This document shows positions 1 through 8,113 of a stretch of DNA of 8,113 bases, one piece after another. The position numbers and the translations under genes were made by a program. Each line of letters begins with the position of its first letter. The first letter of the stretch is position 1. The DNA is from a virus. Its lineage: Duplodnaviria > Heunggongvirae > Uroviricota > Caudoviricetes. The stretch lies in the IMG/VR virus record IMGVR_UViG_2693429779_000008; one strand, given 5' to 3'. Below the pieces are notes generated by a model. It did no database searches, was not told where the DNA came from, and was given only the letters and a program-made list of their open reading frames with translations.

Positions 1-419
1 TCCAGTATCCGGATGGTAAGCCGCCGGTATGGGCAAAGTGTACGAAAGGTGTGTATCCGTCTTACTGGGAAGAATGGAAAAAAGTCAGGGAGGTGGTAAA
101 AGTTGCCTGTCCGGAGTGTGGCGGAAAGGGTGAGGTTTCCACCGCCTGTAAGGATTGCCGTGGGCGTGGTGTCGCCATTCATCGTGAAGAGTCGGTAAAA
201 CGTGGTATGCCTGTTATCAGAGACTGCCAGCGTTGTGGTGGTCGTGGCTATGAAAGACTACCATCAACGGAGGCATTTAATGCTATATGCGAGGTGACAA
301 ACCAGATAACACGCGCGTCATGGGAAAAAACAGTTAAGAAATTCTATGATGCGCTGGTGACCCGGTTTGATATTGAAGAAGCATGGGCTGAGCGGCAGTT
401 AAAAAAGGTAACTAGGTAA
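1..419 (+). CDS. Q-like late-gene antiterminator candidate, 5' partial, with three DnaJ-type CxxCxGxG zinc-finger repeats
   Basis: The reading frame is open from the window start (codons phased from position 3) to TAA at 417-419; the ORF track's start at 51 is only the first in-frame start codon (GTG). Three CxxCxGxG motifs are visible (CPECGGKG, CKDCRGRG, CQRCGGRG). The gene sits immediately upstream of a pR'-like promoter and terminator, as Q does in lambdoid phages. Family assignment is from context and motif, not a search. Confidence 0.5.
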   Translation, partial: QYPDGKPPVWAKCTKGVYPSYWEEWKKVREVVKVACPECGGKGEVSTACKDCRGRGVAIHREESVKRGMPVIRDCQRCGGRGYERLPSTEAFNAICEVTNQITRASWEKTVKKFYDALVTRFDIEEAWAERQLKKVTR

Positions 420-424
420 CAAGG

Positions 425-452
425 TTGATTTTTCCGGAATCTGTGGTAAATT
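425..452 (+). promoter_or_regulatory. pR'-like late promoter candidate (TTGATT, 16-bp spacer, TAAATT)
   Basis: TTGATT at 425-430 and TAAATT at 447-452 with a 16-bp spacer, directly downstream of the Q-like stop codon. Lambda pR' also uses a TAAATT -10 element. Pattern match only. Confidence 0.3.
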
Positions 453-500
453 CGTCATAACGATGGGCGTTTTATGCCTGACGTTAGAAGAGTTTCTACA

Positions 501-523
501 ACCCGCCGCCGAGCGGGTTTTTT
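501..523 (+). terminator. Rho-independent terminator (tR'-like, type 1)
   Basis: 6-bp GC-rich stem ACCCGC/GCGGGT with loop CGCCGA, followed by a T-run (518-523). The same element with its upstream 14 nt recurs at 2579-2601. Confidence 0.6.
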
Positions 524-643
524 ATGACTGAAATCGCGTCAGTACAGTAAACGCGCTGGTGGCGGTGAATACCTGTCTTTCAGCTTGCTGGCTTTTTCGA
601 CAAGAGTTATTGGTGTGTCACGTTAACCGGAAAAGGAAAAGAC

Positions 644-841
644 ATGCTAAAACAGCAGGATATGACAGAAACCGCCAGAGTGGTGTTTAATGAATTAAGC
701 GTTACCGAACCGGCGACAGTCGGGGAGATAGCGCAGAATACTTACCTTTCACGCGAACGCTGCCAGTTAATACTGACCCAGCTGGTTATGGCGGGTCTGG
801 CAGACTATCAGTTCGGTTGTTACAGACGCCTTCCGCAGTGA
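644..841 (+). CDS. Small helix-turn-helix (winged-helix-like) protein, 65 aa, function unknown
   Basis: ATG at 644 is preceded by AGGAAA at about -12 to -7. The segment TVGEIAQNTYLSRERCQLILTQLVMAGL has typical HTH character. The stop codon lies inside a terminator hairpin (828-851). Confidence 0.6.
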   Translation: MLKQQDMTETARVVFNELSVTEPATVGEIAQNTYLSRERCQLILTQLVMAGLADYQFGCYRRLPQ

Positions 842-851
842 AGGCTTTTTT
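828..851 (+). terminator. Rho-independent terminator overlapping the stop of the HTH gene
   Basis: Stem GCCTTC (828-833) / GAAGGC (840-845), 6-nt loop, then TTTTTT (846-851). Confidence 0.5.
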
Positions 852-991
852 ATTTGTGGTAAATGGGCGGCTGGTGGGTGTTAGGGGCACCCACCAGCCA
901 TCTGCTCATGCGTTGGGTTCACAAGCAAACCTCAGGCCCACTGCTTTGCGCAAAAGCAGAATGAGCCTATCAGAGACAGGCTTAATGATCC

Positions 992-2050
992 ATGCTTAAT
1001 GCTGTAAAAATATCCAGTTGTGAGTTAATCAACGCCGACTGCCTGGAATTTATCCGGTCGTTACCCGAAAATTCTGTTGACCTGATAGTCACGGACCCGC
1101 CGTACTTTAAAGTGAAGCCTGAGGGCTGGGATAACCAGTGGAAGGGCGACGATGATTACCTGAAGTGGCTGGACCAGTGTCTGGCGCAGTTCTGGCGGGT
1201 GCTGAAACCTGCCGGAAGTCTTTACCTGTTCTGTGGTCATCGCCTGGCATCTGATATCGAAATCATGATGCGTGAACGCTTCAGTGTGCTGAACCATATT
1301 ATCTGGGCGAAGCCGTCCGGACGCTGGAACGGATGCAACAAGGAAAGCCTGCGGGCGTATTTCCCCGCCACAGAGCGCATTCTGTTCGCGGAACATTATC
1401 AGGGGCCGTATCGTCCGAAAGATGCCGGGTATGCGGCGAAGGGCAGTGCACTGAAACAGCATGTGATGGCCCCGCTGATTTCTTACTTTCGTGATGCGCG
1501 AGCTGCCCTGGGGATAACGGCAAAACAGATTGCAGATGCCACAGGAAAGAAAAACATGGTGTCGCACTGGTTCAGTGCCGGTCAGTGGCAGTTGCCGAAT
1601 GAAAGCGATTATCTGAAATTACAGGCGCTGTTTGCCCGGGTGGCAGAAGAGAAGCATCGGCGTGGTGAACTGGAAAAGCTCCACCACCAGCTGGTGGATA
1701 CGTATACCTCACTGAACCGGCAGTATGCGGAGCTGCTGAGTGAATATAAACATCTGCGGCGGTATTTTGGCGTGACGGTGCAGGTGCCGTATACCGATGT
1801 GTGGACGCATAAACCGGTGCAGTTCTATCCCGGGAAACATCCGTGCGAAAAACCGGCAGAAATGCTGCAGCAGATAATCAGCGCTAGCAGTCGTCCGGGT
1901 GACCTGATTGCAGATTTTTTCATGGGGTTGGGTTCGACAGTGAAAGCGGCACTGGCGCTCGGGCGTCGTGCAATTGGCGTTGAGCTGGAGACTGAACGTT
2001 TTGAGCAGACGGTTCGGGAAGTACAGGATTTAGTCAGCCAGAACGGATGA
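992..2050 (+). CDS. Orphan DNA methyltransferase, beta-class N6-adenine/N4-cytosine type (352 aa)
   Basis: Catalytic motif IV DPPY (VTDPPYF) lies near the N-terminus and the AdoMet-binding motif I (FFMGLGST...LGRRAIGVELE) near the C-terminus. This IV-before-I order is typical of beta-class amino-MTases common in phages. No adjacent restriction endonuclease gene is visible. Target specificity cannot be read from the sequence. Confidence 0.9.
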   Translation: MLNAVKISSCELINADCLEFIRSLPENSVDLIVTDPPYFKVKPEGWDNQWKGDDDYLKWLDQCLAQFWRVLKPAGSLYLFCGHRLASDIEIMMRERFSVLNHIIWAKPSGRWNGCNKESLRAYFPATERILFAEHYQGPYRPKDAGYAAKGSALKQHVMAPLISYFRDARAALGITAKQIADATGKKNMVSHWFSAGQWQLPNESDYLKLQALFARVAEEKHRRGELEKLHHQLVDTYTSLNRQYAELLSEYKHLRRYFGVTVQVPYTDVWTHKPVQFYPGKHPCEKPAEMLQQIISASSRPGDLIADFFMGLGSTVKAALALGRRAIGVELETERFEQTVREVQDLVSQNG

Positions 2051-2090
2051 TATTGAAGAATTAATTACGCGTCGTTATTATGCGGCTCCC

Positions 2091-2166
2091 GGCCCTTTAG
2101 CTCAGTGGTGAGAGCGAGCGACTCATAATCGCCAGGTCGCTGGTTCAAATCCAGCAAGGGCCACCA
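2091..2166 (+). tRNA. ileZ: tRNA with CAT anticodon, ileX/ileZ-like (tRNA-Ile2 read via lysidine, or Met), 76 nt with encoded CCA
   Basis: Hand-folded cloverleaf: acceptor GGCCCTT/AAGGGCC, D-stem GCTC/GAGC, anticodon loop CTCATAA, T-loop TTCAAAT, encoded CCA. Closely resembles E. coli ileX as recalled. The symbol is by analogy to Stx-phage tRNA clusters. Confidence 0.85.
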
Positions 2167-2173
2167 TCACATA

Positions 2174-2250
2174 CCGCCATTAGCTCATCAGGAAAGAGCG
2201 CCAGCCTTCGAAGCTGGCTGCGCGGGGTTCAAGTCCCCGATGGCGGTCCA
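2174..2250 (+). tRNA. argN: tRNA-Arg, anticodon TCG (reads CGA), 77 nt with encoded CCA
   Basis: Hand-folded: acceptor CCGCCAT/ATGGCGG (unusual C1-G72), D-loop ATCAGGAAA, anticodon stem CCAGC/GCTGG with loop CTTCGAA, T-loop TTCAAGT. The symbol is by positional analogy to the ileZ-argN-argO cluster of Stx phages and is not verified. Confidence 0.7.
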
Positions 2251-2263
2251 TTATCTGCATCAT

Positions 2264-2340
2264 GCGTTGTTAGCTCAGCCGGACAGAGCAATTGCCTTCT
2301 AAGCAATCGGTCACTGGTTCGAATCCAGTACAACGCGCCA
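2264..2340 (+). tRNA. argO: tRNA-Arg, anticodon TCT (reads AGA), 77 nt with encoded CCA
   Basis: Hand-folded: acceptor GCGTTGT/ACAACGC, anticodon stem ATTGC/GCAAT with loop CTTCTAA, T-loop TTCGAAT. Symbol by positional analogy. Confidence 0.85.
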
Positions 2341-2354
2341 CACTTATTTTCCCT

Positions 2355-2380
2355 GGCTCGCTTTTGCGGGCCTTTTTTTT
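2355..2380 (+). terminator. Rho-independent terminator after tRNA triplet 1
   Basis: 7-bp stem GGCTCGC/GCGGGCC (one G-U pair) with TTTT loop, followed by eight T residues (2373-2380). Confidence 0.6.
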
Positions 2381-2566
2381 AAATGTCTCACAATTCAGAC
2401 GGTTGACAGTTGTCTGTTTTGCGGGGAGTTTGTTAAAAGAAACTGGCATGGTGAATCCCCCTGTGCGGAGGGGCAATCAGCGAGTAGGTATATGGGATAA
2501 TCGCGGATTCAGGTGCTGGTACTGAATTCACCGGGAGGCACCCGGCATCATGCAATGGCACATAGC
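2381..2566 (+). repeat. Module copy A: TTGACA hexamer, conserved hairpins, ends ...CACATAGC; candidate promoter/leader or structured-RNA unit
   Basis: Near-identical to 3554-3739 and 4501-4686; a diverged homolog lies at 4961-5184. Contains TTGACA (2403-2408), hairpin CCCCT-GTGCGG-AGGGG, and hairpin CCGGG-AGGCA-CCCGG. Followed by the type-1 terminator. Confidence 0.8.
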
Positions 2567-2578
2567 AGAGTTTCTACA

Positions 2579-2601
2579 ACCCGCCGCCGAGCGGGTTTTT
2601 T
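2579..2601 (+). terminator. Rho-independent terminator (second copy of type 1)
   Basis: Same ACCCGC-CGCCGA-GCGGGT hairpin plus T-run as 501-523, including the AGAGTTTCTACA lead-in. Confidence 0.6.
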
Positions 2602-2640
2602 ATTGCGGAATTAATTACGGACCGTTATTATTCTGCTCCC

Positions 2641-2716
2641 GGCCCTTTAGCTCAGTGGTGAGAGCGAGCGACTCATAATCGCCAGGTCGCTGGTTCAAAT
2701 CCAGCAAGGGCCACCA
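2641..2716 (+). tRNA. ileZ: tRNA with CAT anticodon (second copy, identical to 2091-2166)
   Basis: 76 nt identical to the first copy. The upstream spacer GAATTAATTACG...CTCCC is also duplicated with a few substitutions. Confidence 0.85.
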
Positions 2717-2723
2717 TCACAAA

Positions 2724-2803
2724 CCGCCATTAGCTTATCAGGAAGAGCAGACGACATGATAACAGGGTTGTTGGTGCGGGGGCGGGTCCCCGATGGCGGT
2801 CCA
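2724..2803 (+). pseudogene. Degenerate tRNA-like element (paralog of tRNA-Arg TCG with rewritten anticodon and T arms)
   Basis: Acceptor stem CCGCCAT/ATGGCGG and D-arm are retained, but the anticodon region is replaced by about 28 nt that do not form a canonical 5-bp stem with 7-nt loop, and the T-loop is GCGGGT instead of TTCAAGT. Probably non-functional, or a tRNA-derived element. Confidence 0.5.
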
Positions 2804-2816
2804 TTATCGGTATTCA

Positions 2817-2893
2817 GCGTTGTTAGCTCAGCCGGACAGAGCAATTGCCTTCTAAGCAATCGGTCACTGGTTCGAATCCAGTACAGCGCGCCA
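2817..2893 (+). tRNA. argO: tRNA-Arg, anticodon TCT (second copy, one acceptor-stem substitution giving a G-U pair)
   Basis: Same cloverleaf as 2264-2340. The 3' acceptor strand is ACAGCGC rather than ACAACGC. Confidence 0.8.
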
Positions 2894-3003
2894 TATTCAT
2901 TCTTCCAGATTCCTTCCGGCAGAGCCTTATACTGAAATATACCTGGCTCAGGATATTGTTGAAAATATTTTATGTTTGTCAAAAATAAAAGTTCTGTTAA
3001 GTA

Positions 3004-3357
3004 TTGATTGAGTGTTTGTTATACGGTCTAATGGTTTTTTCAGCATTAAATATTTATCATTCATATGGTGTGGGTAGAGTGAATATTGATGAGGCGTCGG
3101 GGTGTTTCATCCTTAGGCAGCGTATTGATATAGTCAATGCAGCACGAGCAAAGGCCTTCAGCCGTTTGACAGTTTTGTTCTGTACTCCTGATCGTCTTTC
3201 GGGAAGAGACGTTATTATTCTGAATAGTGATGCTATACAGAGGGTTTGCGATGAGTTCATGGTTGCTAATTCAGAATTATTTGCTCTTGTTCAGGAGTAC
3301 AACAGAATAGCCAGGACCTGTGGTATGGATGAACTTCGGATTACTCATCTGGGGTAG
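3004..3357 (+). CDS. Hypothetical protein, no recognisable family; start codon uncertain
   Basis: Open frame from TTG at 3004 to TAG at 3355-3357; alternative in-frame starts are ATG 3031 and GTG 3070/3079, none with a convincing Shine-Dalgarno. Preceded by an AT-rich promoter-like stretch (2940-3003). Coding status is unproven. Confidence 0.3.
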   Translation: MIECLLYGLMVFSALNIYHSYGVGRVNIDEASGCFILRQRIDIVNAARAKAFSRLTVLFCTPDRLSGRDVIILNSDAIQRVCDEFMVANSELFALVQEYNRIARTCGMDELRITHLG

Positions 3358-3553
3358 ATACATATCTGGATTATCACCTGTTACGGTAAAAAGTGATTGC
3401 TTACTGTTTTTGTGAATGGCATTGCAGCAGCCGGATAATGTCAGTGCTGGCTGACGGTGTGCTGGTGGCGGGTGTGGTGGTTGTTGCTTTCCCGTTGCTG
3501 AAAAAGAAAACGCCAGACTGTTAGCCGGGTATCAGTTAGCGGGAGAAATTTTT

Positions 3554-3739
3554 AAATACTTCACAATTCAGGCGGTTGACTGTTGTCTGGTTTGCGGGGA
3601 GTTTGTTAAAAGAAACTGGCATGGTGAATCCCCCTGTGCGGAGGGGCAATCAGCGAGTAGGTATATGGGATAATCGCGGATTCAGGTGCTGGTACTGAAT
3701 TCACCGGGAGGCACCCGGCACCATGCAATGGCACATAGC
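3554..3739 (+). repeat. Module copy B (hexamer is TTGACT in this copy)
   Basis: Aligns base-for-base with copy A apart from a few substitutions near the 5' end. Followed by the type-2 terminator. Confidence 0.8.
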
Positions 3740-3749
3740 GCCACTCTCC

Positions 3750-3774
3750 AGCCCCTCTCCGGAGGGGCTGTTTA
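3750..3774 (+). terminator. Rho-independent terminator (type 2)
   Basis: 8-bp stem AGCCCCTC/GAGGGGCT with TCCG loop, then GTTTATATT. Confidence 0.6.
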
Positions 3775-3804
3775 TATTGATTTTGTCAGATGTGAGTAAA
3801 CTCC

Positions 3805-4140
3805 TTATGGACTTTGTTGTTTTAGTCCATAAGGACATATTTGCAGAGTGCAACGGTTATTAAAGCATTCATTCAATACGTTATCTGTATTTGTAGGGCA
3901 TTCCTGGCTATTTTTGATTGAATTCCAGAATGTTTTATTGAATGGTACTACGTTGTAAATGGTTACAGGTAGCACTTTGTTATTGAGCATGATGCCTGTG
4001 TGAGTCAGTGTAAATATACTTTCAGGAGGTAAGAAAGCATCCGATTGATACCAGATTATTAATTTTATTTTACTCCATATGACTGAAAAAGATATTCCGC
4101 ATGATGGCTGGATAACTGTATCAATCACAATCCACTTCAT
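3805..4140 (-). CDS. Hypothetical protein, 111 aa, with four cysteines in the C-terminal part, encoded antisense to the late operon in an AT-rich island
   Basis: On the minus strand the ATG at 4140-4138 is preceded by AAGGAAACTAA (good Shine-Dalgarno spacing). Composition is visibly AT-rich compared with flanking phage DNA. A perfect 12-bp inverted repeat (3802-3813 / 3824-3835) overlaps the stop codon. No family recognised. Confidence 0.45.
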
Positions 4141-4400
4141 TTAGTTTCCTTGTTTATGCCTTGCTGGTGATGTTCTGAAAAGTATAAATGATATTTTTGA
4201 ATGTAAACCATAGAGCAGAATTATTTTTCTGATGTTGTTTATTGTTTATTTAAATGCAGGGTGGTTTATATCTCGTCTTGTAGTTTATCCATGCATATCT
4301 GCTTGATAATCAGGTTTTTATTTAAGGTATGGTTTTGTGTTTTTTCTGTATTACATGTCAGGTATTTTAAAGAATTATTTTTCAGATGGTGGAAAGAACC

Positions 4401-4502
4401 ATGGCATTTAAACACTATGATGTTGTCAGGGCGGCGCCGCCGTCAGATCTTGCGGAAAAGCTGACACATAAACTGAAAGAGGGCTGGCAGCCATTTTTTT
4501 AA
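4401..4502 (+). pseudogene. Truncated paralog of the nanS-p 5' end (first 33 codons of the DUF1737-type N-terminus, then stop)
   Basis: Encodes MAFKHYDVVRAAPPSDLAEKLTHKLKEGWQPFF-stop; the full gene at 5436 begins MAFKHYDVVRAASPSDLAKRLTQKLKEGWQPFG. That is 5 differences in 33 residues. The frame ends where module copy C begins (stop TAA at 4500-4502 made by the junction). Confidence 0.65.
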
Positions 4503-4686
4503 ATGTCTCACAATTCAGACGGTTGACAGTTGTCTGTTTTGCGGGGAGTTTGTTAAAAGAAACTGGCATGGTGAATCCCCCTGTGCGGAGGGGCAATCAG
4601 CGAGTAGGTATATGGGATAATCGCGGATTCAGGTGCTGGTACTGAATTCACCGGGAGGCACCCGGCATCATGCAATGGCACATAGC
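4501..4686 (+). repeat. Module copy C
   Basis: Near-identical to copy A (TTGACA at 4523-4528, same hairpins). Followed by the type-2 terminator. Confidence 0.8.
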
Positions 4687-4696
4687 GCCACTCTCC

Positions 4697-4720
4697 AGCC
4701 CTCTCCGGAGGGGCTTTTCT
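4697..4720 (+). terminator. Rho-independent terminator (type 2, one-base deletion variant)
   Basis: AGCCCTC-TCCG-GAGGGGCT followed by TTTTCT. Confidence 0.5.
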
Positions 4721-4909
4721 GTGCCGGATACATCACAGTTTCTGGAACCTTAGGTACTACAGTATCAGTCAGGGTGCTATATTTTCAGATGTGATGAAAG
4801 CCTGTCAGCAGGCAGGGCGTATCGGAAATGACCCAGTAGAGAAAACGTTGACTCAGATACCGGTGCTGAGTTACCGGGAAACCGGCATCACATGACCGCT
4901 ATCCTTCCA

Positions 4910-4936
4910 GGCCCATCCGCTCCGGTGGGCCTTTTT
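4910..4936 (+). terminator. Rho-independent terminator
   Basis: 8-bp stem GGCCCATC/GGTGGGCC (one G-U pair) with 6-nt loop, then TTTTT (4932-4936). Confidence 0.55.
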
Positions 4937-4960
4937 ACTGCAGAAAACAGGTTCCCCGTT

Positions 4961-5184
4961 AAATGCTATGTTGCTCACAATTCAGTAAGTTGACAGTTGC
5001 CTGTCAGACTGGGCATTTGTTAAAAAAATTTCGCATGGTGAATCCCCCTGAGCGGAGGGGCGACTGGTGACGGTATAATCTCTGATTATCAAAACGAGAA
5101 TGACGCGGGTTTAGTGGCACCGGGCTGAACTCACCGGGAGGCACCCGGCACCATGTGCATGATGATACAGATACGCGGCTTTAG
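4961..5184 (+). repeat. Module copy D (diverged homolog of A/B/C)
   Basis: Shares CTCACAATTCAG, TTGACAGTTG, TTTGTTAAAA, CATGGTGAATCCCCCTG-GCGGAGGGG, a TATAAT at the position of TATATG in A-C, and CTCACCGGGAGGCACCCGGCA. Intervening segments differ and include insertions. Confidence 0.7.
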
Positions 5185-5204
5185 CCCCTCTCCGGAGGGG
5201 TTTT
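5185..5204 (+). terminator. Rho-independent terminator (type 2 variant) closing copy D
   Basis: Stem CCCCTC/GAGGGG with TCCG loop, then TTTTCTTGTG. An A7 run plus the GCCCGCG/CGCGGGC hairpin immediately downstream (5214-5242) would act as a terminator for the opposite strand. Confidence 0.55.
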
Positions 5205-5435
5205 CTTGTGGGCAAAAAAAGCCCGCGCTGGGAGACGCGGGCGGCAAGGAATAAACAATAAAACGTGAAGTAATATTTCAGCTGGCGAATAATACCCCAT
5301 AGTAATCACTCTGCGCAACTGCGCGGTCTTTTTCGAATTGCGGGCTGTCGTCTCTCTTCTGCCATTGTCCTGTAACTTCCGGACTTCAGCCCGCTCCTTA
5401 TTTTACTCACAATATTATCCCGGCCGGGAGGATTC

Positions 5436-7289
5436 ATGGCATTTAAACACTATGACGTGGTCAGGGCGGCATCGCCGTCAGACCTTGCGAAACGACTGAC
5501 ACAAAAACTGAAGGAGGGCTGGCAGCCGTTTGGTAGTCCGGTGGCCATAACCCCTTATACCCTGATGCAGGCGATTGCAGCAGAAGGTGATGTGGTCGTC
5601 AGTGGTGCAACTGAGCCGGAGTGGTACTACGTCATCGTACTGGCCGGGCAATCCAATGCCATGGCTTACGGTGAAGGTCTTCCGCTTCCGGATTCATACG
5701 ATGCGCCCCATCCGCGCATTAAGCAACTGGCCCGTCGTAACACAGTGACTCCCGGTGGTGAAGTATGCGTATTTAACGACATCATTCCTGCTGACCATTG
5801 TCTGCATGATGTTCAGGATATGAGTACGATTAACCATCCCCGGGCTGACCTGAGCAAAGGGCAGTACGGCTGTGTCGGACAGGGCTTACATATTGCCAAA
5901 AAACTGCTTCCGTATATCCCTAATAATGCGGGGATCCTGCTGGTACCATGCTGTTGTGGTGGTTCGGCATTCACCCAGGGCACGGAGGGGACATTCAGCG
6001 AGTCCACGGGGGCCAGTCAGGATTCGGCTCGCTGGGGAGTGGGTAAGCCGTTATATCAGGATCTGCTTTTCCGCACGAAGGCAGCATTGCAGAAAAACCC
6101 GAAAAACGTTTTGCTGGCGATATGCTGGATGCAGGGGGAATTCGATATGACGAATGCCAGTTACGCCCAGCAGCCAGCAGCATTTCTTGCAATGGTACAG
6201 CAGTTCCGTGCTGACCTTGCCGGGCTGGCGGCGCAGTGTCACGGTGGAAGTCCGGCATCAGTCCCCTGGATTTGTGGCGACACGACATACGCGTGGAAAC
6301 AAGAACACGGTACGCAATATGAAGTGGTATATGGTGCATATAAAGGTAAAGAATCCCAGCAGATTTATTTTGTTCCCTTTATGACCGATGGTAGCGGAGT
6401 TAATACACCGACAAACAACCCGTCAGAAGATCCTGATATTGCCGGGTCTGGTTATTACGGTTCGGCATCCCGAACGAACAAAAACTGGGTATCATCAAAT
6501 CGCCCGACGCATTTCAGCTCATGGGCGCGTCGTGGCATTATTCCCGATCGTATGGCAACTGCTATTCTGAACGTAGCCGGTCGCACCTTAGCCTTCATTA
6601 GTGGTAAGGCACCGGAAATCAAACCCTCGCCCGGCGGCGACACGCCATCGGGGCCGTCTGAAGATGCATCCATACGCACAATCTCCCTGTTGCCGACAGC
6701 CGGAGACGCTGCTGCGCAGGGCTGGAGCATTAAGAATGGCGGAGTTCAGTTGTCAGATGGTGTATTTAAGATCACCAAGCAGAGCAATAAAGCCTGGTCC
6801 CTGACGCGCCCGGTGGATGACGCAGTCTCCCTGCTGACACGGGGTGGCAGACTGAGCTGTAAGTTTCGACTGTCAGGCGCACTGACCAACAACCAGTTCG
6901 GTCTGGGAATTTATCTGTATACCGATGTAGCGTTACCTGACGTCGTGGCGATGACCGGGACTGGTAACCCGTTCCTGATGTCGTTCTTCACCCAGACCAC
7001 AGACGGCAAACTGAATCTGATGCATCACAAGAAAGCAGGAAACACAAAGTTGGGCGAGTTCGGGAATTACAGTAACGACTGGCTGACGCTGGAGCTGGTG
7101 TTCACCGCCGGCAGTGCCACGGTTACTCCGAAACTGAATGGAGTGGCTGGCCCGGCATTCCAGGTCATAAAAGACAGTCTGACACTGGGGCTGAATGCGC
7201 TGACGCTGACGGATATTACCAAAAATGCAGCGTATGGCGTTGAGATAGAAAGTCTGGTGCTGGAGATAAATGCACCGGCATCATCATAA
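5436..7289 (+). CDS. nanS-p: Prophage NanS-p-type sialate O-acetylesterase (DUF1737 N-terminus, SGNH/SASA esterase core, C-terminal domain of unknown function), 617 aa
   Basis: ATG at 5436 is preceded by GGGAGG. The GQSNA motif carries the SGNH-family catalytic serine. The N-terminus matches the DUF1737 pattern of Stx-prophage esterases that normally lie between the stx/tRNA region and the lysis genes. Recognition-based; no search was run. Confidence 0.9.
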   Translation: MAFKHYDVVRAASPSDLAKRLTQKLKEGWQPFGSPVAITPYTLMQAIAAEGDVVVSGATEPEWYYVIVLAGQSNAMAYGEGLPLPDSYDAPHPRIKQLARRNTVTPGGEVCVFNDIIPADHCLHDVQDMSTINHPRADLSKGQYGCVGQGLHIAKKLLPYIPNNAGILLVPCCCGGSAFTQGTEGTFSESTGASQDSARWGVGKPLYQDLLFRTKAALQKNPKNVLLAICWMQGEFDMTNASYAQQPAAFLAMVQQFRADLAGLAAQCHGGSPASVPWICGDTTYAWKQEHGTQYEVVYGAYKGKESQQIYFVPFMTDGSGVNTPTNNPSEDPDIAGSGYYGSASRTNKNWVSSNRPTHFSSWARRGIIPDRMATAILNVAGRTLAFISGKAPEIKPSPGGDTPSGPSEDASIRTISLLPTAGDAAAQGWSIKNGGVQLSDGVFKITKQSNKAWSLTRPVDDAVSLLTRGGRLSCKFRLSGALTNNQFGLGIYLYTDVALPDVVAMTGTGNPFLMSFFTQTTDGKLNLMHHKKAGNTKLGEFGNYSNDWLTLELVFTAGSATVTPKLNGVAGPAFQVIKDSLTLGLNALTLTDITKNAAYGVEIESLVLEINAPASS

Positions 7290-7374
7290 AAAGTGAGCCA
7301 GCCAAATGGAAGGTATCGTTAAACTCACCGGTAGTGTCAGTGGGTCGTCTGAGATGCCTGCATGAGTTATCAGA

Positions 7375-7404
7375 GCCATCAGTACTTAACTGGTGGCTTT
7401 TTTT
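7375..7404 (+). terminator. Rho-independent terminator downstream of nanS-p
   Basis: Stem GCCATCAG/CTGGTGGC (one G-U pair) with loop TACTTAA, then TTTTTTT (7398-7404). Confidence 0.6.
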
Positions 7405-7439
7405 ATTGTTGTCAGCTTCCGGATAACGGGAGACGGGGT

Positions 7440-7655
7440 ATGTACCAGATGGAAAAAATCACAACAGGTGTGTCATACACCACGTCAGCGGTGGGAACGG
7501 GCTACTGGTTCCTGCAGTTGCTGGACAGGGTTTCCCCGTCTCAGTGGGCGGCAATAGGCGTGCTGGGGAGTCTGCTGTTTGGGCTGCTGACATATCTGAC
7601 TAACCTGTATTTCAAAATCAGAGAGGACCGTCGTAAGGCTGCACGGGGAGAGTAA
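7440..7655 (+). CDS. S: Class II pinholin, phage 21 S-type, with dual start motif (MYQM...)
   Basis: GGAGACGGGG Shine-Dalgarno precedes ATG 7440, with a second in-frame ATG at 7449, matching the antiholin/holin dual start of S21. The sequence ...[51 protein letters not shown] matches S21 as recalled. The ORF track's longer ORF from 7362 runs through the upstream terminator and is unlikely to be translated. Confidence 0.85.
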
Positions 7656-7659
7656 TTCA

Positions 7660-7974
7660 ATGACTCAAAACTATGAACTGATTGTGAAAGGGATCCGCAA
7701 TTTTGAGAATAAAGTTACGGTAACTTTAGCGTTACGGGACAAAAAACGCTTTGACGGTGAAATTTTTGACCTGGACATCTCGCTGGACCGTGTTGAAGGT
7801 GCCGCGCTGGAGTTTTATGAGGCAGCAGCCAGAAGGAGCATCAGACAGGTCTTCTTGGATGTTGCTGCCGGGTTATGTGAAGGGGACGAGCTGTTGCCAG
7901 AAACGCGCCCCTGTTCAGAGGCGCGGTATACCATAAAAATTAACAGTTCTGATAACTCGATTACGGGTTGTTAG
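7660..7974 (+). CDS. Hypothetical lysis-cassette protein (104 aa) between holin and endolysin
   Basis: ATG at 7660 is preceded by GGGGAGAG that overlaps the holin stop. Acidic, soluble-looking sequence. I recall similar small ORFs (possibly DUF1327) in this position in E. coli prophages, but cannot verify. Confidence 0.55.
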   Translation: MTQNYELIVKGIRNFENKVTVTLALRDKKRFDGEIFDLDISLDRVEGAALEFYEAAARRSIRQVFLDVAAGLCEGDELLPETRPCSEARYTIKINSSDNSITGC

Positions 7975-8029
7975 CTTTTTGCAGTTGGCTTTCCAGTATC
8001 TTTCATTGGTAGCATCCTGATAAATATCC

Positions 8030-8113
8030 ATGAGCGCAAAAATCAAATACGGCCTGTCAGCTGCTGTTCTGGCGCTGATTGCAAAATGGCATCTGAATCG
8101 ATCGCAGTTTGGC
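8030..8113 (+). CDS. Probable endolysin (signal-anchor-release type) N-terminus, 3' partial
   Basis: ATG at 8030 opens MSAKIKYGLSAAVLALIA..., an Ala/Gly/Leu-rich weakly hydrophobic N-terminus typical of SAR endolysins that partner with pinholins. Only 28 codons lie inside the window and the Shine-Dalgarno is weak. Confidence 0.4.
   Translation, partial: MSAKIKYGLSAAVLALIAKWHLNRSQFG

Follow-up and report, generated by a model that had tools for sequence, protein, structure and literature searches.

The stretch of DNA analysed here (8,113 nucleotides, hereafter the window) belongs to a virus of the Caudoviricetes (IMG/VR record IMGVR_UViG_2693429779_000008). It runs from the antiterminator gene Q to the start of the lysis cassette, with the following features in between.

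1..419, plus strand: 3' part of the antiterminator Q gene (Pfam PF03589, E = 6.5e-32; 99.2% identity to the E. coli 042 Q region).
425..526, plus strand: true late promoter pR'-tR' by sequence inspection (TTGATT 425-430, TAAATT 447-452), with an AACGAT -10-like element at 459-464 and, by terminator scan, the tR' hairpin at 500-519 followed by a T-run.
2091..2340, plus strand: tRNA triplet 1, ileZ-like CAT, Arg-TCG and Arg-TCT (ARAGORN, Rfam tRNA).
2355-2372, plus strand: terminator after tRNA triplet 1 (terminator scan).
2410..2601, plus strand: sRNA gene A (RF02076; -35 TTGTCT 2410-2415, extended -10 TGtTAAAAG 2431-2439, predicted +1 G2446, terminator 2578-2597).
2563..2610, plus strand: second copy of the 3' half of the pR' leader with tR' (repeat D7, 92%), at the left end of the proposed 042-type insert.
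2641..2893, plus strand: tRNA triplet 2, its middle member (~2724-2810) degenerate; ARAGORN calls only two tRNAs.
3393..3524, plus strand: DUF3927 small ORF, directly upstream of B (Pfam PF13064, E = 1.7e-27).
3583..3774, plus strand: sRNA gene B (RF02076; -35 3583-3588, -10 3607-3612, predicted +1 G3619, terminator 3749-3770).
3805..4140, minus strand: iraM-like anti-adaptor gene, convergent with B (NCBIfam NF007393, 162 bits against a cut-off of 121).
4391..4496, plus strand: 5' fragment of a second nanS-p allele (repeat D5, 85% to 5426-5531; 99% to the ST131 nanS-p 5' end).
4530..4721, plus strand: sRNA gene C, core identical to A (RF02076; predicted +1 G4566, terminator 4697-4715 with a 1-nt deletion).
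4775..4938, plus strand: family member X, all helices kept (extended -10 TGcTATATT 4775-4783, predicted +1 near 4790, terminator 4909-4932).
4997..5206, plus strand: sRNA gene D (-35 TTGCCT 4997-5002, extended -10 TGtTAAAAA 5018-5026, predicted +1 G5033, terminator 5183-5202).
5214..5267, minus strand: convergent small-RNA-like gene forming a dyad with D (minus-strand terminator 5242-5221).
5436..7289, plus strand: nanS-p (DUF1737, SASA esterase and DUF6645; Pfam), conserved downstream of the moron site.
7440..7655, plus strand: P21-type holin, start of the lysis cassette (Pfam PF04971, E = 9e-33).

The pR'-tR' stretch at 425-526, which we take to be the counterpart of lambda pR', is found directly 3' of Q also in phages mEp460 and vB_EcoS-640R1, and a hairpin homologous to its tR' carries the annotation 'terminator' in SfV. 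At the equivalent of tRNA triplet 2 in 042 and ST131, PGAP too annotates two tRNAs. The DUF3927 ORF also precedes PasD1 and PasD2 in E2348/69, gene D has 86% identity to the copy behind stx2cB in phage 2851, and X is conserved in E. albertii locus L018 and in the IMG/VR loci L209 and L221 that carry this variant.

A preliminary description of this DNA had recognised a module of promoter, hairpins and terminator in four copies, of which three (A, 2381-2566; B, 3554-3739; C, 4501-4686) were said to be near-identical and one (D, 4961-5184) to be diverged with all its blocks kept. This is borne out by the alignments: A and C are the same at 186/186 positions, A/B and B/C share 96.2% and D has ~66% identity to A-C in a global alignment. 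A repeat finder run on the window returned three 206-nt copies at 91-97% identity and matched D to the others over the 5' 88 nt (82%) and over the CCGGG hairpin block of 31 nt (97%). The TTGACA hexamer, the CCCCT-N6-AGGGG and CCGGG-AGGCA-CCCGG hairpins and a terminator were found in 4/4 copies A-D, although the terminator stems of A-C fall just outside the module boundaries first drawn (2578-2597, 3749-3770 and 4697-4715). The repeated module is therefore real, but the family has five members here and not four. A fifth, diverged relative (X, at 4765-4938) occupies the 240 bp between C and D that had been left unassigned, and C, X and D are three consecutive sRNA genes with no protein gene in between. 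That a different cargo lies behind each copy is correct as adjacency and nothing beyond it; the island after B contains iraM, on the opposite strand.

The module, not recognised at first as a named element, already has a name. In the Rfam/Infernal search A-D were identified as RF02076 STnc100, with full-length model alignments scoring 119 (A), 132.4 (B), 123.6 (C) and 161 bits (D), all above the curated gathering score of 47 bits. Chance is excluded as the source of the repeat, since each copy A-D matches this one covariance model with E = 1e-26 to 1e-37. X aligned to the whole STnc100 model at 30.1 bits (E = 4.5e-5), below the gathering score. STnc100 overlaps EcOnc27/sRNA103 and is a sister group of PasD1/PasD2. 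With a curated Rfam entry and a family under discussion since 2014, the element as such brings little that is new; it is an ordinary known element in an unusual arrangement. We consider it likely that every module works as an autonomous gene, encoding a structured STnc100 sRNA of ~155-175 nt, and that the array is a product of recombination and not of a mobile mechanism.

The gene body has ~60 invariant nucleotides, and the RNA would fold with a closing helix GCAUGGUG/CACCAUGC around the invariant CCCCU/AGGGG hairpin, a variable arm, a covarying 8-bp helix and the invariant CCGGG-AGGCA-CCCGG hairpin. In the consensus fold of 36 pairs, 97.2% of cells are paired, and the covariation test supports it, with compensatory changes in 15/36 pairs against 5.9±1.5 in shuffles (0/500) and at most 8 in slid controls. 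This consensus recurs in the minimum free energy (MFE) folds of A, B, C and X, while the MFE of D is an alternative fold; the MFE z-scores are -3.6 for B and -2.6 for X and weak, -0.4 to -1.2, for A, C and D. The embedded ORF does have 25 codons in A-C and 11 in D, and the earlier suggestion that conservation lies at the level of RNA and not of peptide holds among homologues, where the ORF spans from 8 to >52 codons and in one case has ATA for ATG.

Upstream of this body lies a putative sigma-70 promoter, made up of a -35 TTGYCT, an 18-nt spacer and an extended -10 TGnTAAAAR. The TTGACA hexamer is kept in all four copies, as had been noted, but judging by sequence the real -35 is probably not this one but TTGTCT/TTGCCT, 7 nt downstream, which aligns with the PasD promoter; across 32 representatives there is little or no variation in the TTG of this second hexamer or in the TG-n-TAAAA motif. 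The PasD2 5' end is the G of GCAUGGUG (Table S6, PMC8550237), and by homology to this mapped end transcription would start at the same G in the window; the promoter register and +1 of gene A were set by the PasD2 alignment. The Rfam model begins ~30 nt upstream of the proposed +1, and the true STnc100 5' end may differ. For the LT2 copies of STnc100, promoter regions have been depicted with an RpoD and RpoN ChIP-exo binding pattern. At the other end, a variable single-stranded linker would lead to an intrinsic terminator with a U-tail, the usual Hfq-binding 3' end. Terminators have been exchanged among copies with the unit intact, being of tR' type in A and of CCCCTCTCCGGAGGGG type in B-D; the hybrid terminator of A at 2578-2597 is a copy of tR' (repeat D7, common to 485-532).

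Among the closest known systems is EcOnc27, the Hfq-binding STnc100 RNA encoded directly 3' of stx2B in Sp5/933W. A-D share its fold and invariant hairpins, they likewise sit between moron cargo and nanS-p, and D is paired with a convergent gene on the minus strand, just as EcOnc27 is with AsxR, which in 933W occupies the same place as 5214..5267 does here. However, the norm for STnc100 is one gene per prophage, against five paralogues in 2.8 kb here. Copy A has a foreign (tR') terminator, the stx genes are absent, and the 933W copy has other central and linker segments. PasD1 and PasD2 of EPEC E2348/69 (Pearl Mizrahi 2021; Zhu, Shabalina and Storz 2026 preprint) have in common with the modules the 5' end GCAUGGUGAAUCC, the architecture, the promoter geometry, the DUF3927 upstream neighbour and a site upstream of nanS-p. 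They score 38-41 bits, under the STnc100 threshold, their second hairpin differs, and only the 5' block, together with the general architecture, aligns as homologous. None of the window copies has the seed UGUGAG proposed for PasD or its linker, and CCTTGTGAGTTCTGG found no match there with up to 3 mismatches. Convergent sRNA dyads downstream of pR' have been described before (EcOnc27/AsxR and EcOnc06/AgvB; Tree et al. 2014), and D (+) with 5267-5214 (-) looks alike. D alone forms such a convergent pair between cargo and a conserved downstream ORF, with transcription being predicted, whereas A, B and C are without a minus-strand partner. The partner of D matches neither the AsxR nor the AgvB model of Rfam but an uncharacterised EPEC RIL-seq candidate (E2348C_1409.E2348C_1408.IGR, 48/52 identical). 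Like morons (Juhala et al. 2000), the module is a self-contained unit of promoter, gene and terminator between conserved late genes, of the kind expressed from the prophage; it differs in that its product is an RNA and that the unit is a conserved landmark of the site and not the variable cargo.

Relatives of these genes are expressed. In EDL933 there are 11 annotated copies with RNA-seq reads (RPKM ~100-1,900), one of them northern-positive (PMC5331693), and the sRNA EcOnc27 has been detected both by Hfq-CRAC and by northern blot (PMC7873438, PMC4104026). PasD1 and PasD2 of EPEC have been validated by northern blot and are found in Hfq RIL-seq, in a study that reports Hfq-dependent stability for the Pas sRNAs. 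The +1 positions, expression and Hfq binding that we propose for the window are all drawn from such homologues. By the same analogy, the RNAs would be made constitutively in lysogens and may use their variable regions to act in trans with Hfq; during lytic growth, as suggested by established lambda biology, Q-modified polymerase coming from pR' would read through all the module terminators.

How five such genes came together can be read from two other loci. One of them (L193) matches window positions 1-2566 (99.92%) and 4490-8113 (99.89%) contiguously, and window 2563-4496 has 99.5% identity to positions 4001-5934 of the E. coli 042 locus L003. The recipient would have been a late region of L193 type, with the order tRNAs, module, X, D and nanS-p, and the insert a 1.92-kb piece of a 042-type late region carrying the 3' half of tR', tRNAs, DUF3927, module B, iraM and nanS-p up to about codon 35. 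The insert would have been fused to the recipient at two illegitimate joints, the left at 2566/2567 and the right near 4489-4496, which have microhomologies of 3 nt (TAG and GCC), so that duplicates of the resident module of 197 bp, A and C, would now stand at its two ends. Of the eight module junctions, six recur elsewhere at 98-100% identity and two are unique to the window. Ordinary homologous and illegitimate recombination accounts for the layout.

A different origin had been envisaged in the preliminary description, a mobile regulatory or small-RNA cassette. The small-RNA cassette with its own promoter and terminator, in the part of the late operon that tolerates morons, has stood; the vehicle for mobile delivery has not. 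It is true that the neighbours differ at each window copy and that flanks reassort freely, 105 modules falling into 19 left-flank and 12 right-flank clusters in 35 combinations with 20 four-gamete quartets. However, a MITE-like or integron-like cassette that brings morons into the late operon is very improbable in view of what the DNA lacks: only internal hairpins, and no terminal inverted repeats, were found in three modules scanned with their flanks, no target-site duplications were seen at the module flanks, and no associated recombinase was found in the window. Neither of the two new joints is within the module, both being in unrelated sequence that shares no more than a 3-nt microhomology, and all the 'collapsed' variants of the window repeats occur in complete genomes, as homologous recombination predicts. 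These joints were not found in 5,426 complete E. coli genomes, IMG/VR or JGI metagenomes, so the five-copy arrangement of the window rests on one assembly. This absence, the identity of A and C over 197 bp and the fact that both parental types are common would also suit a chimera in which the assembly joined two prophages of a single genome, which we consider quite unlikely. The joints lie in unique sequence where the parents share only 3 nt (TAG; GCC), and a repeat-collapse misjoin is unable to create them, so that they must exist in the reads. Moreover, complete genomes hold comparable or larger arrays: the three-gene M-X-D run is present in 522 (~10%) and a five-copy array in 89 (1.6%) of the 5,426 E. 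coli genomes.

Recombination into an array of sRNA genes has also to be set against other functions for the module itself. Stacked pR'/qut leaders from phages with different Q alleles had been proposed. As lambda 6S-like RNAs they would suit the position in the late operon downstream of Q and the promoter-like site and terminator of each module, and copy A has the tR' hairpin itself, duplicated, at its end (repeat D7). This hairpin in A is the product of a recombination joint and not of the family design. Directly after Q the window already contains a pR'-tR', with a genuine 6S/StxS-type unit at 459-526 whose terminator was copied onto gene A, while the modules are 2.0-4.6 kb away. Homologues are not directly 3' of Q but 1-2 kb from it, after stxB (933W, 2851) or DUF3927 (042, E2348/69); in 933W the annotated pR', qut and terminators adjoin Q and the module lies ~2 kb further on, after stxB. 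Lambda pR' has a -10-like pause-inducing element in its initial transcribed region. No such element was found in the initial transcribed sequence GCATGGTGAATCCCCC of the modules, while the true pR' of the window has AACGAT at 459-464. With lambda 6S RNA and StxS (the pR' leader ended at tR') the modules share a short terminated late-region transcript, but sequence and fold are unrelated, and we regard the leader origin as exceedingly improbable. The same can be said of a small protein starting MVNPPVRRG. Its ATG is present in 30/31 homologues, its first nine codons are conserved, and some EDL933 copies carry ribosome footprints with a ribosomal coverage value (RCV) of up to 3.2. Yet past codon 9 frame, length and sequence diverge, the conserved codons overlap the invariant hairpin, a +1 at the G two bases before the ATG would leave no Shine-Dalgarno, and RCV ranges from 0 to 3.2 across near-identical copies. 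Finally, the main role might be in cis, as an insulator made up of promoter and terminator: in lysogens it would divide the late operon and keep transcription from running on into nanS-p and the lysis genes, with the RNA as a by-product. There are 24 intrinsic-terminator-like sites in the window against 8.4±2.7 expected, nine of them on the plus strand between pR' and the holin, and terminators are swapped without loss of the unit. We think this unlikely, because a terminator alone would suffice, leaving unexplained the invariant nucleotides and covarying internal helices as well as the Hfq binding and abundant stable RNA in relatives.

Three by-products of the analysis, on annotation gaps, arrays and mosaicism, may be of help to those who work on prophage sRNAs. 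In NCBI PGAP annotation STnc100 genes are either missing or overlain by a spurious antisense pseudogene, and arrays of three to five paralogues, which are common, complicate copy-specific probes, qPCR and machine-learning features built on the region. Among 32 representatives we found at least 16 central and at least 13 linker alleles, with four-gamete evidence of exchange; no description of arrays or intragenic mosaicism of STnc100 genes was found in the accessible literature. Tentatively, STnc100 may be a combinatorial sRNA platform in which invariant hairpins bracket hypervariable cassettes that reassort, the arrays acting as a battery of seeds and the scaffold as a crossover point for moron cargo. 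If this were true, a late region could carry up to five differently 'loaded' paralogues, with distinct seeds for one prophage. The gene is a hub of late-region mosaicism and itself mosaic, which bears on why sRNA "dyads" mark the moron site.

The repeated modules of this window are genes of a known small RNA family, STnc100 (Rfam RF02076), standing in a known place and multiplied by ordinary phage recombination. A repeat search of the window returned three copies of 206 nt (91-97% identity) and a fourth one, similar at 82% over its 5' 88 nt and at 97% over the CCGGG hairpin block, so that the repeats claimed in the preliminary description (A to D in the list) are real and lie where they had been placed. 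Within those boundaries A does not differ from C (186/186), B has 96.2% identity with either and D reaches ca. 66% by global alignment; the terminators of A-C fall just 3' of them.

Features of the window (positions in nucleotides)
Left end: 3' part of Q (PF03589)
425-430, 447-452 and 459-464: lambda-like late promoter (TTGATT, TAAATT and AACGAT)
500-519: tR' hairpin of the late promoter
Between tR' and the tRNA triplet: small ORF and N6/N4 DNA methylase
3' of the methylase and 5' of the repeat-bearing stretch: tRNA triplet
2381-2566: copy A
3554-3739: copy B
4501-4686: copy C
4765-4938 (+): X, a fifth, diverged module
4961-5184: copy D
3' of the repeat-bearing stretch: nanS-p (DUF1737, SASA and DUF6645)
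3' of nanS-p: P21-type holin and DUF1327

The whole window belongs to the late genes of a lambdoid prophage, and some other features of it deserve mention. In the second triplet the tRNA in the middle (2724-2810, +) is degenerate, with the anticodon-arm region replaced and the acceptor and T arms kept, and it was called neither by ARAGORN in the window nor by PGAP in the loci of 042 and ST131. An iraM-like anti-adaptor gene carried by the prophage (3805-4140, -; NF007393, 162 bits) lies on the opposite strand within the late operon, between small RNA gene B and a nanS-p fragment, and is also found in the ST131 and 042 prophages. Just 5' of the holin there is a strong intrinsic terminator with a 12-bp stem (7372-7400, +), 93% identical to the stretch preceding S in 933W, perhaps marking where another small transcript ends.

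The module had been presented as an element without a recognised name, a view corrected by the Rfam search, in which A-D all match STnc100 along the full model with 119-161 bits (gathering score 47). X, located in the hitherto unassigned segment between C and D, likewise covers the entire model (30.1 bits, E = 4.5e-5), which gives the window five members of the family; its score is below the threshold and routine annotation would therefore miss it. X keeps every helix through compensatory substitutions, has its own extended -10 (TGcTATATT, 4775-4783) and its own terminator (4909-4932), and is kept in Escherichia albertii (locus L018) and in two IMG/VR loci (L209 and L221) carrying the same variant. 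We also scanned 298 Gb of genome contigs with the 16-base pattern GCATGGTGAATCCNCCT, too short for such a volume, and nearly all of the 120 matches were due to chance; the only useful loci were those of E. albertii (L018 and L019).

The structure was examined in an alignment of 31 sequences (<93% identity) from the window copies, complete genomes, IMG/VR loci and PasD1/2, two related small RNAs of EPEC E2348/69. The consensus fold has six helices, with standard pairs in 97.2% of the cells and compensatory changes at 15 pairs vs. 5.9±1.5 in shuffles, none of which (0/500) reached the observed value; control structures slid by 1-3 columns gave at most eight. The two hairpins originally described are unvarying throughout the STnc100 group, loops included, and strong covariation is found in the 8-bp helix between them and in the terminator. 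When A, B, C and X are folded singly (ViennaRNA), the MFE structure of each agrees with the consensus; D favours an alternative fold, and the thermodynamic z-scores, between -0.4 and -3.6, are modest. Hairpin 1 is complementary to the CCCCTCTCCGGAGGGG terminator (3631-3647/3751-3767 and 5040-5061/5184-5205; 17-22 nt, 73-76%), a possible long-range pairing that is used in the MFE fold of D and is absent from copies with other terminators (A, 933W).

As to coding potential, the reported shrinkage of the embedded ORF from 25 codons in A-C to 11 in D is borne out. The ORF is conserved only in its first nine codons, coinciding with the invariant hairpin; past this point its length ranges from 8 to >52 codons, and in one homologue the ATG is replaced by ATA. 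With neither length nor sequence kept past codon 9 a small protein was discarded, and the covarying helices sustain the proposal that conservation acts at the RNA rather than the peptide level. A 42-codon antisense ORF (-; 2433-2561, 3606-3734 and 4553-4681), which PGAP lists in 042, ST131 and others as a pseudogene (partial "hypothetical protein"), is probably an annotation artefact over the small RNA gene.

A consensus promoter scan of the window did not call the module promoters, as their -10 lacks the final T, and their assignment rests on the alignment to PasD. PasD2 (NC_011601, 741157-741328) has its mapped 5' end at the G of GCAUGGUGAAUCC, and the PasD -35 (TTGACT) aligns with TTGTCT/TTGCCT, not with the TTGACA found 7 nt upstream. 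Among 32 representatives the TTG of this hexamer and the extended -10 (TG-n-TAAAA) are invariant or nearly so. By the alignment the two hexamers are 18 nt apart, and transcription is predicted to start at G2446, G3619, G4566 and G5033, and at ca. 4790 for X. The 12-nt CTCACAATTCAG and a TTAAAT 5' of the promoter are nearly invariant in the window copies and 28 homologues.

What is known of the family is in line with the small RNA cassette that had been among the initial suggestions, which proved right. EDL933 has 11 annotated copies scattered over its genome, all with RNA-seq reads and one verified on a northern blot (PMC5331693). EcOnc27/sRNA103, a small RNA positive in both Hfq-CRAC and northern blots (PMC7873438, PMC4104026), overlaps the copy 3' of stx2B and forms a convergent dyad with AsxR. 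Its overexpression raises fimZ and espA transcripts and HUS-predictive SNPs fall in it (PMC12711010); it is also present in STEC outer membrane vesicles (PMC12370729). For the promoter regions of the LT2 copies an RpoD and RpoN ChIP-exo binding pattern has been published (PMC10794520), and the northern-validated EPEC RIL-seq small RNAs PasD1 and PasD2 are structural homologues of STnc100 (2026 preprint). A link to EcOnc13 has a table note (PMC8550237) as its sole support, and a literature search for this name gave no match.

Convergent with D there is a small-RNA-like gene (5214-5267, -; terminator 5242-5221) with a GU-rich 5' part (CACGUUUUAUUGUUUAUUCCUUG). It shares 48/52 positions with E2348C_1409.E2348C_1408.IGR, a RIL-seq candidate from EPEC, and matched no Rfam model; AsxR occupies the equivalent position in 933W.

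Other interpretations of the module have been considered. Stacked pR'/qut leaders were one of the original readings. The pR'-tR' stretch of the window comes right after Q in several phages, and SfV has a terminator annotation at its hairpin. The pR', qut and terminators annotated in 933W border directly on Q, and the module is ca. 2 kb beyond, 46 nt after stxB; phage 2851 has the same arrangement, and in 042, ST131 and E2348/69 the module comes after DUF3927, at >1 kb from Q. The module thus stands apart from Q in all of these genomes, and the leader reading was abandoned. A tR' copy stands as terminator in copy A only (a repeat shared with the tR' leader, 485-532), the result of a recombination joint. 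An antiterminator RNA of the HK022 put type was dropped, since the relatives accumulate as discrete terminated small RNAs.

The other proposal, a mobile vehicle delivering morons, fares no better, nor does a MITE-like element: a scan of three modules and their flanks revealed no terminal inverted repeats, and no target duplications were found. The flanks reassort, with 19 left and 12 right clusters in 35 combinations (20 quartets), and in 32 representatives there are at least 16 central and at least 13 linker alleles, for which the four-gamete test gives evidence that they have been exchanged across the invariant core. Homologous exchange at a conserved landmark, rather than transposition, matches this pattern.

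Exchange between prophages is also visible in the history of the array. Local BLAST against the fetched loci found, for each repeat pair of the window, a complete genome in which it is "collapsed": E. coli 042 (L003) is without 526-2562, ST131 (L006) is without tRNA triplet 1 and A and without 4497-5434, and two other loci have B and C (L007) or A and C (L008) fused. The parental-type prophage L193 matches 1-2566 (99.92%) and 4490-8113 (99.89%), contiguous in L193, and 042 is 99.5% identical over 2563-4496, so that a 1.92-kb insert of the 042 type interrupts what is otherwise a late region of the L193 type, and the resident 197-bp module is duplicated at the ends of this insert (2370-2566 = 4490-4686). 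The left joint is CACATAGC|AGAGTTTC, with TAG common to the parents, and the right one GGCAGCC|ATTTTTTT, with GCC in common. Both lie in otherwise unrelated sequence; they are therefore illegitimate and cannot be an artefact of repeat collapse. Of the eight junctions of the modules, six are found in other loci at 98-100% identity. Neither of the two new joints occurs in 5,426 complete E. coli genomes (non-collinear matches only) or, by exact-string scan, in IMG/VR or the JGI metagenomes.

A search of sequenced phages with D hit 359 places spread over 353 records, or roughly one copy for each phage, and an nhmmer scan of 120 IMG/VR and 12 reference loci found one copy in 112, two in 18 and five in one. 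The run of a module, X and D is contiguous in ca. 522 of the 5,426 genomes, and the five-copy array of locus L182 is intact in 89, e.g., O91:H21 FWSEC0008. In this array four STnc100 genes stand head-to-tail (L182 6913-7936; L250 4501-5619 in FWSEC0008), differing in their central and linker segments, with the fifth copy 2 kb upstream; PGAP annotates nothing over it. Arrays of STnc100 are thus recurrent, and the particular layout of the window is unique. In the window copies and 28 homologues, invariant blocks of ca. 29 and ca. 33 nt separate hypervariable central and linker segments that reassort (four-gamete quartets). What novelty remains is to be sought in these arrays and in the way the STnc100 gene itself is a cassette-like mosaic.
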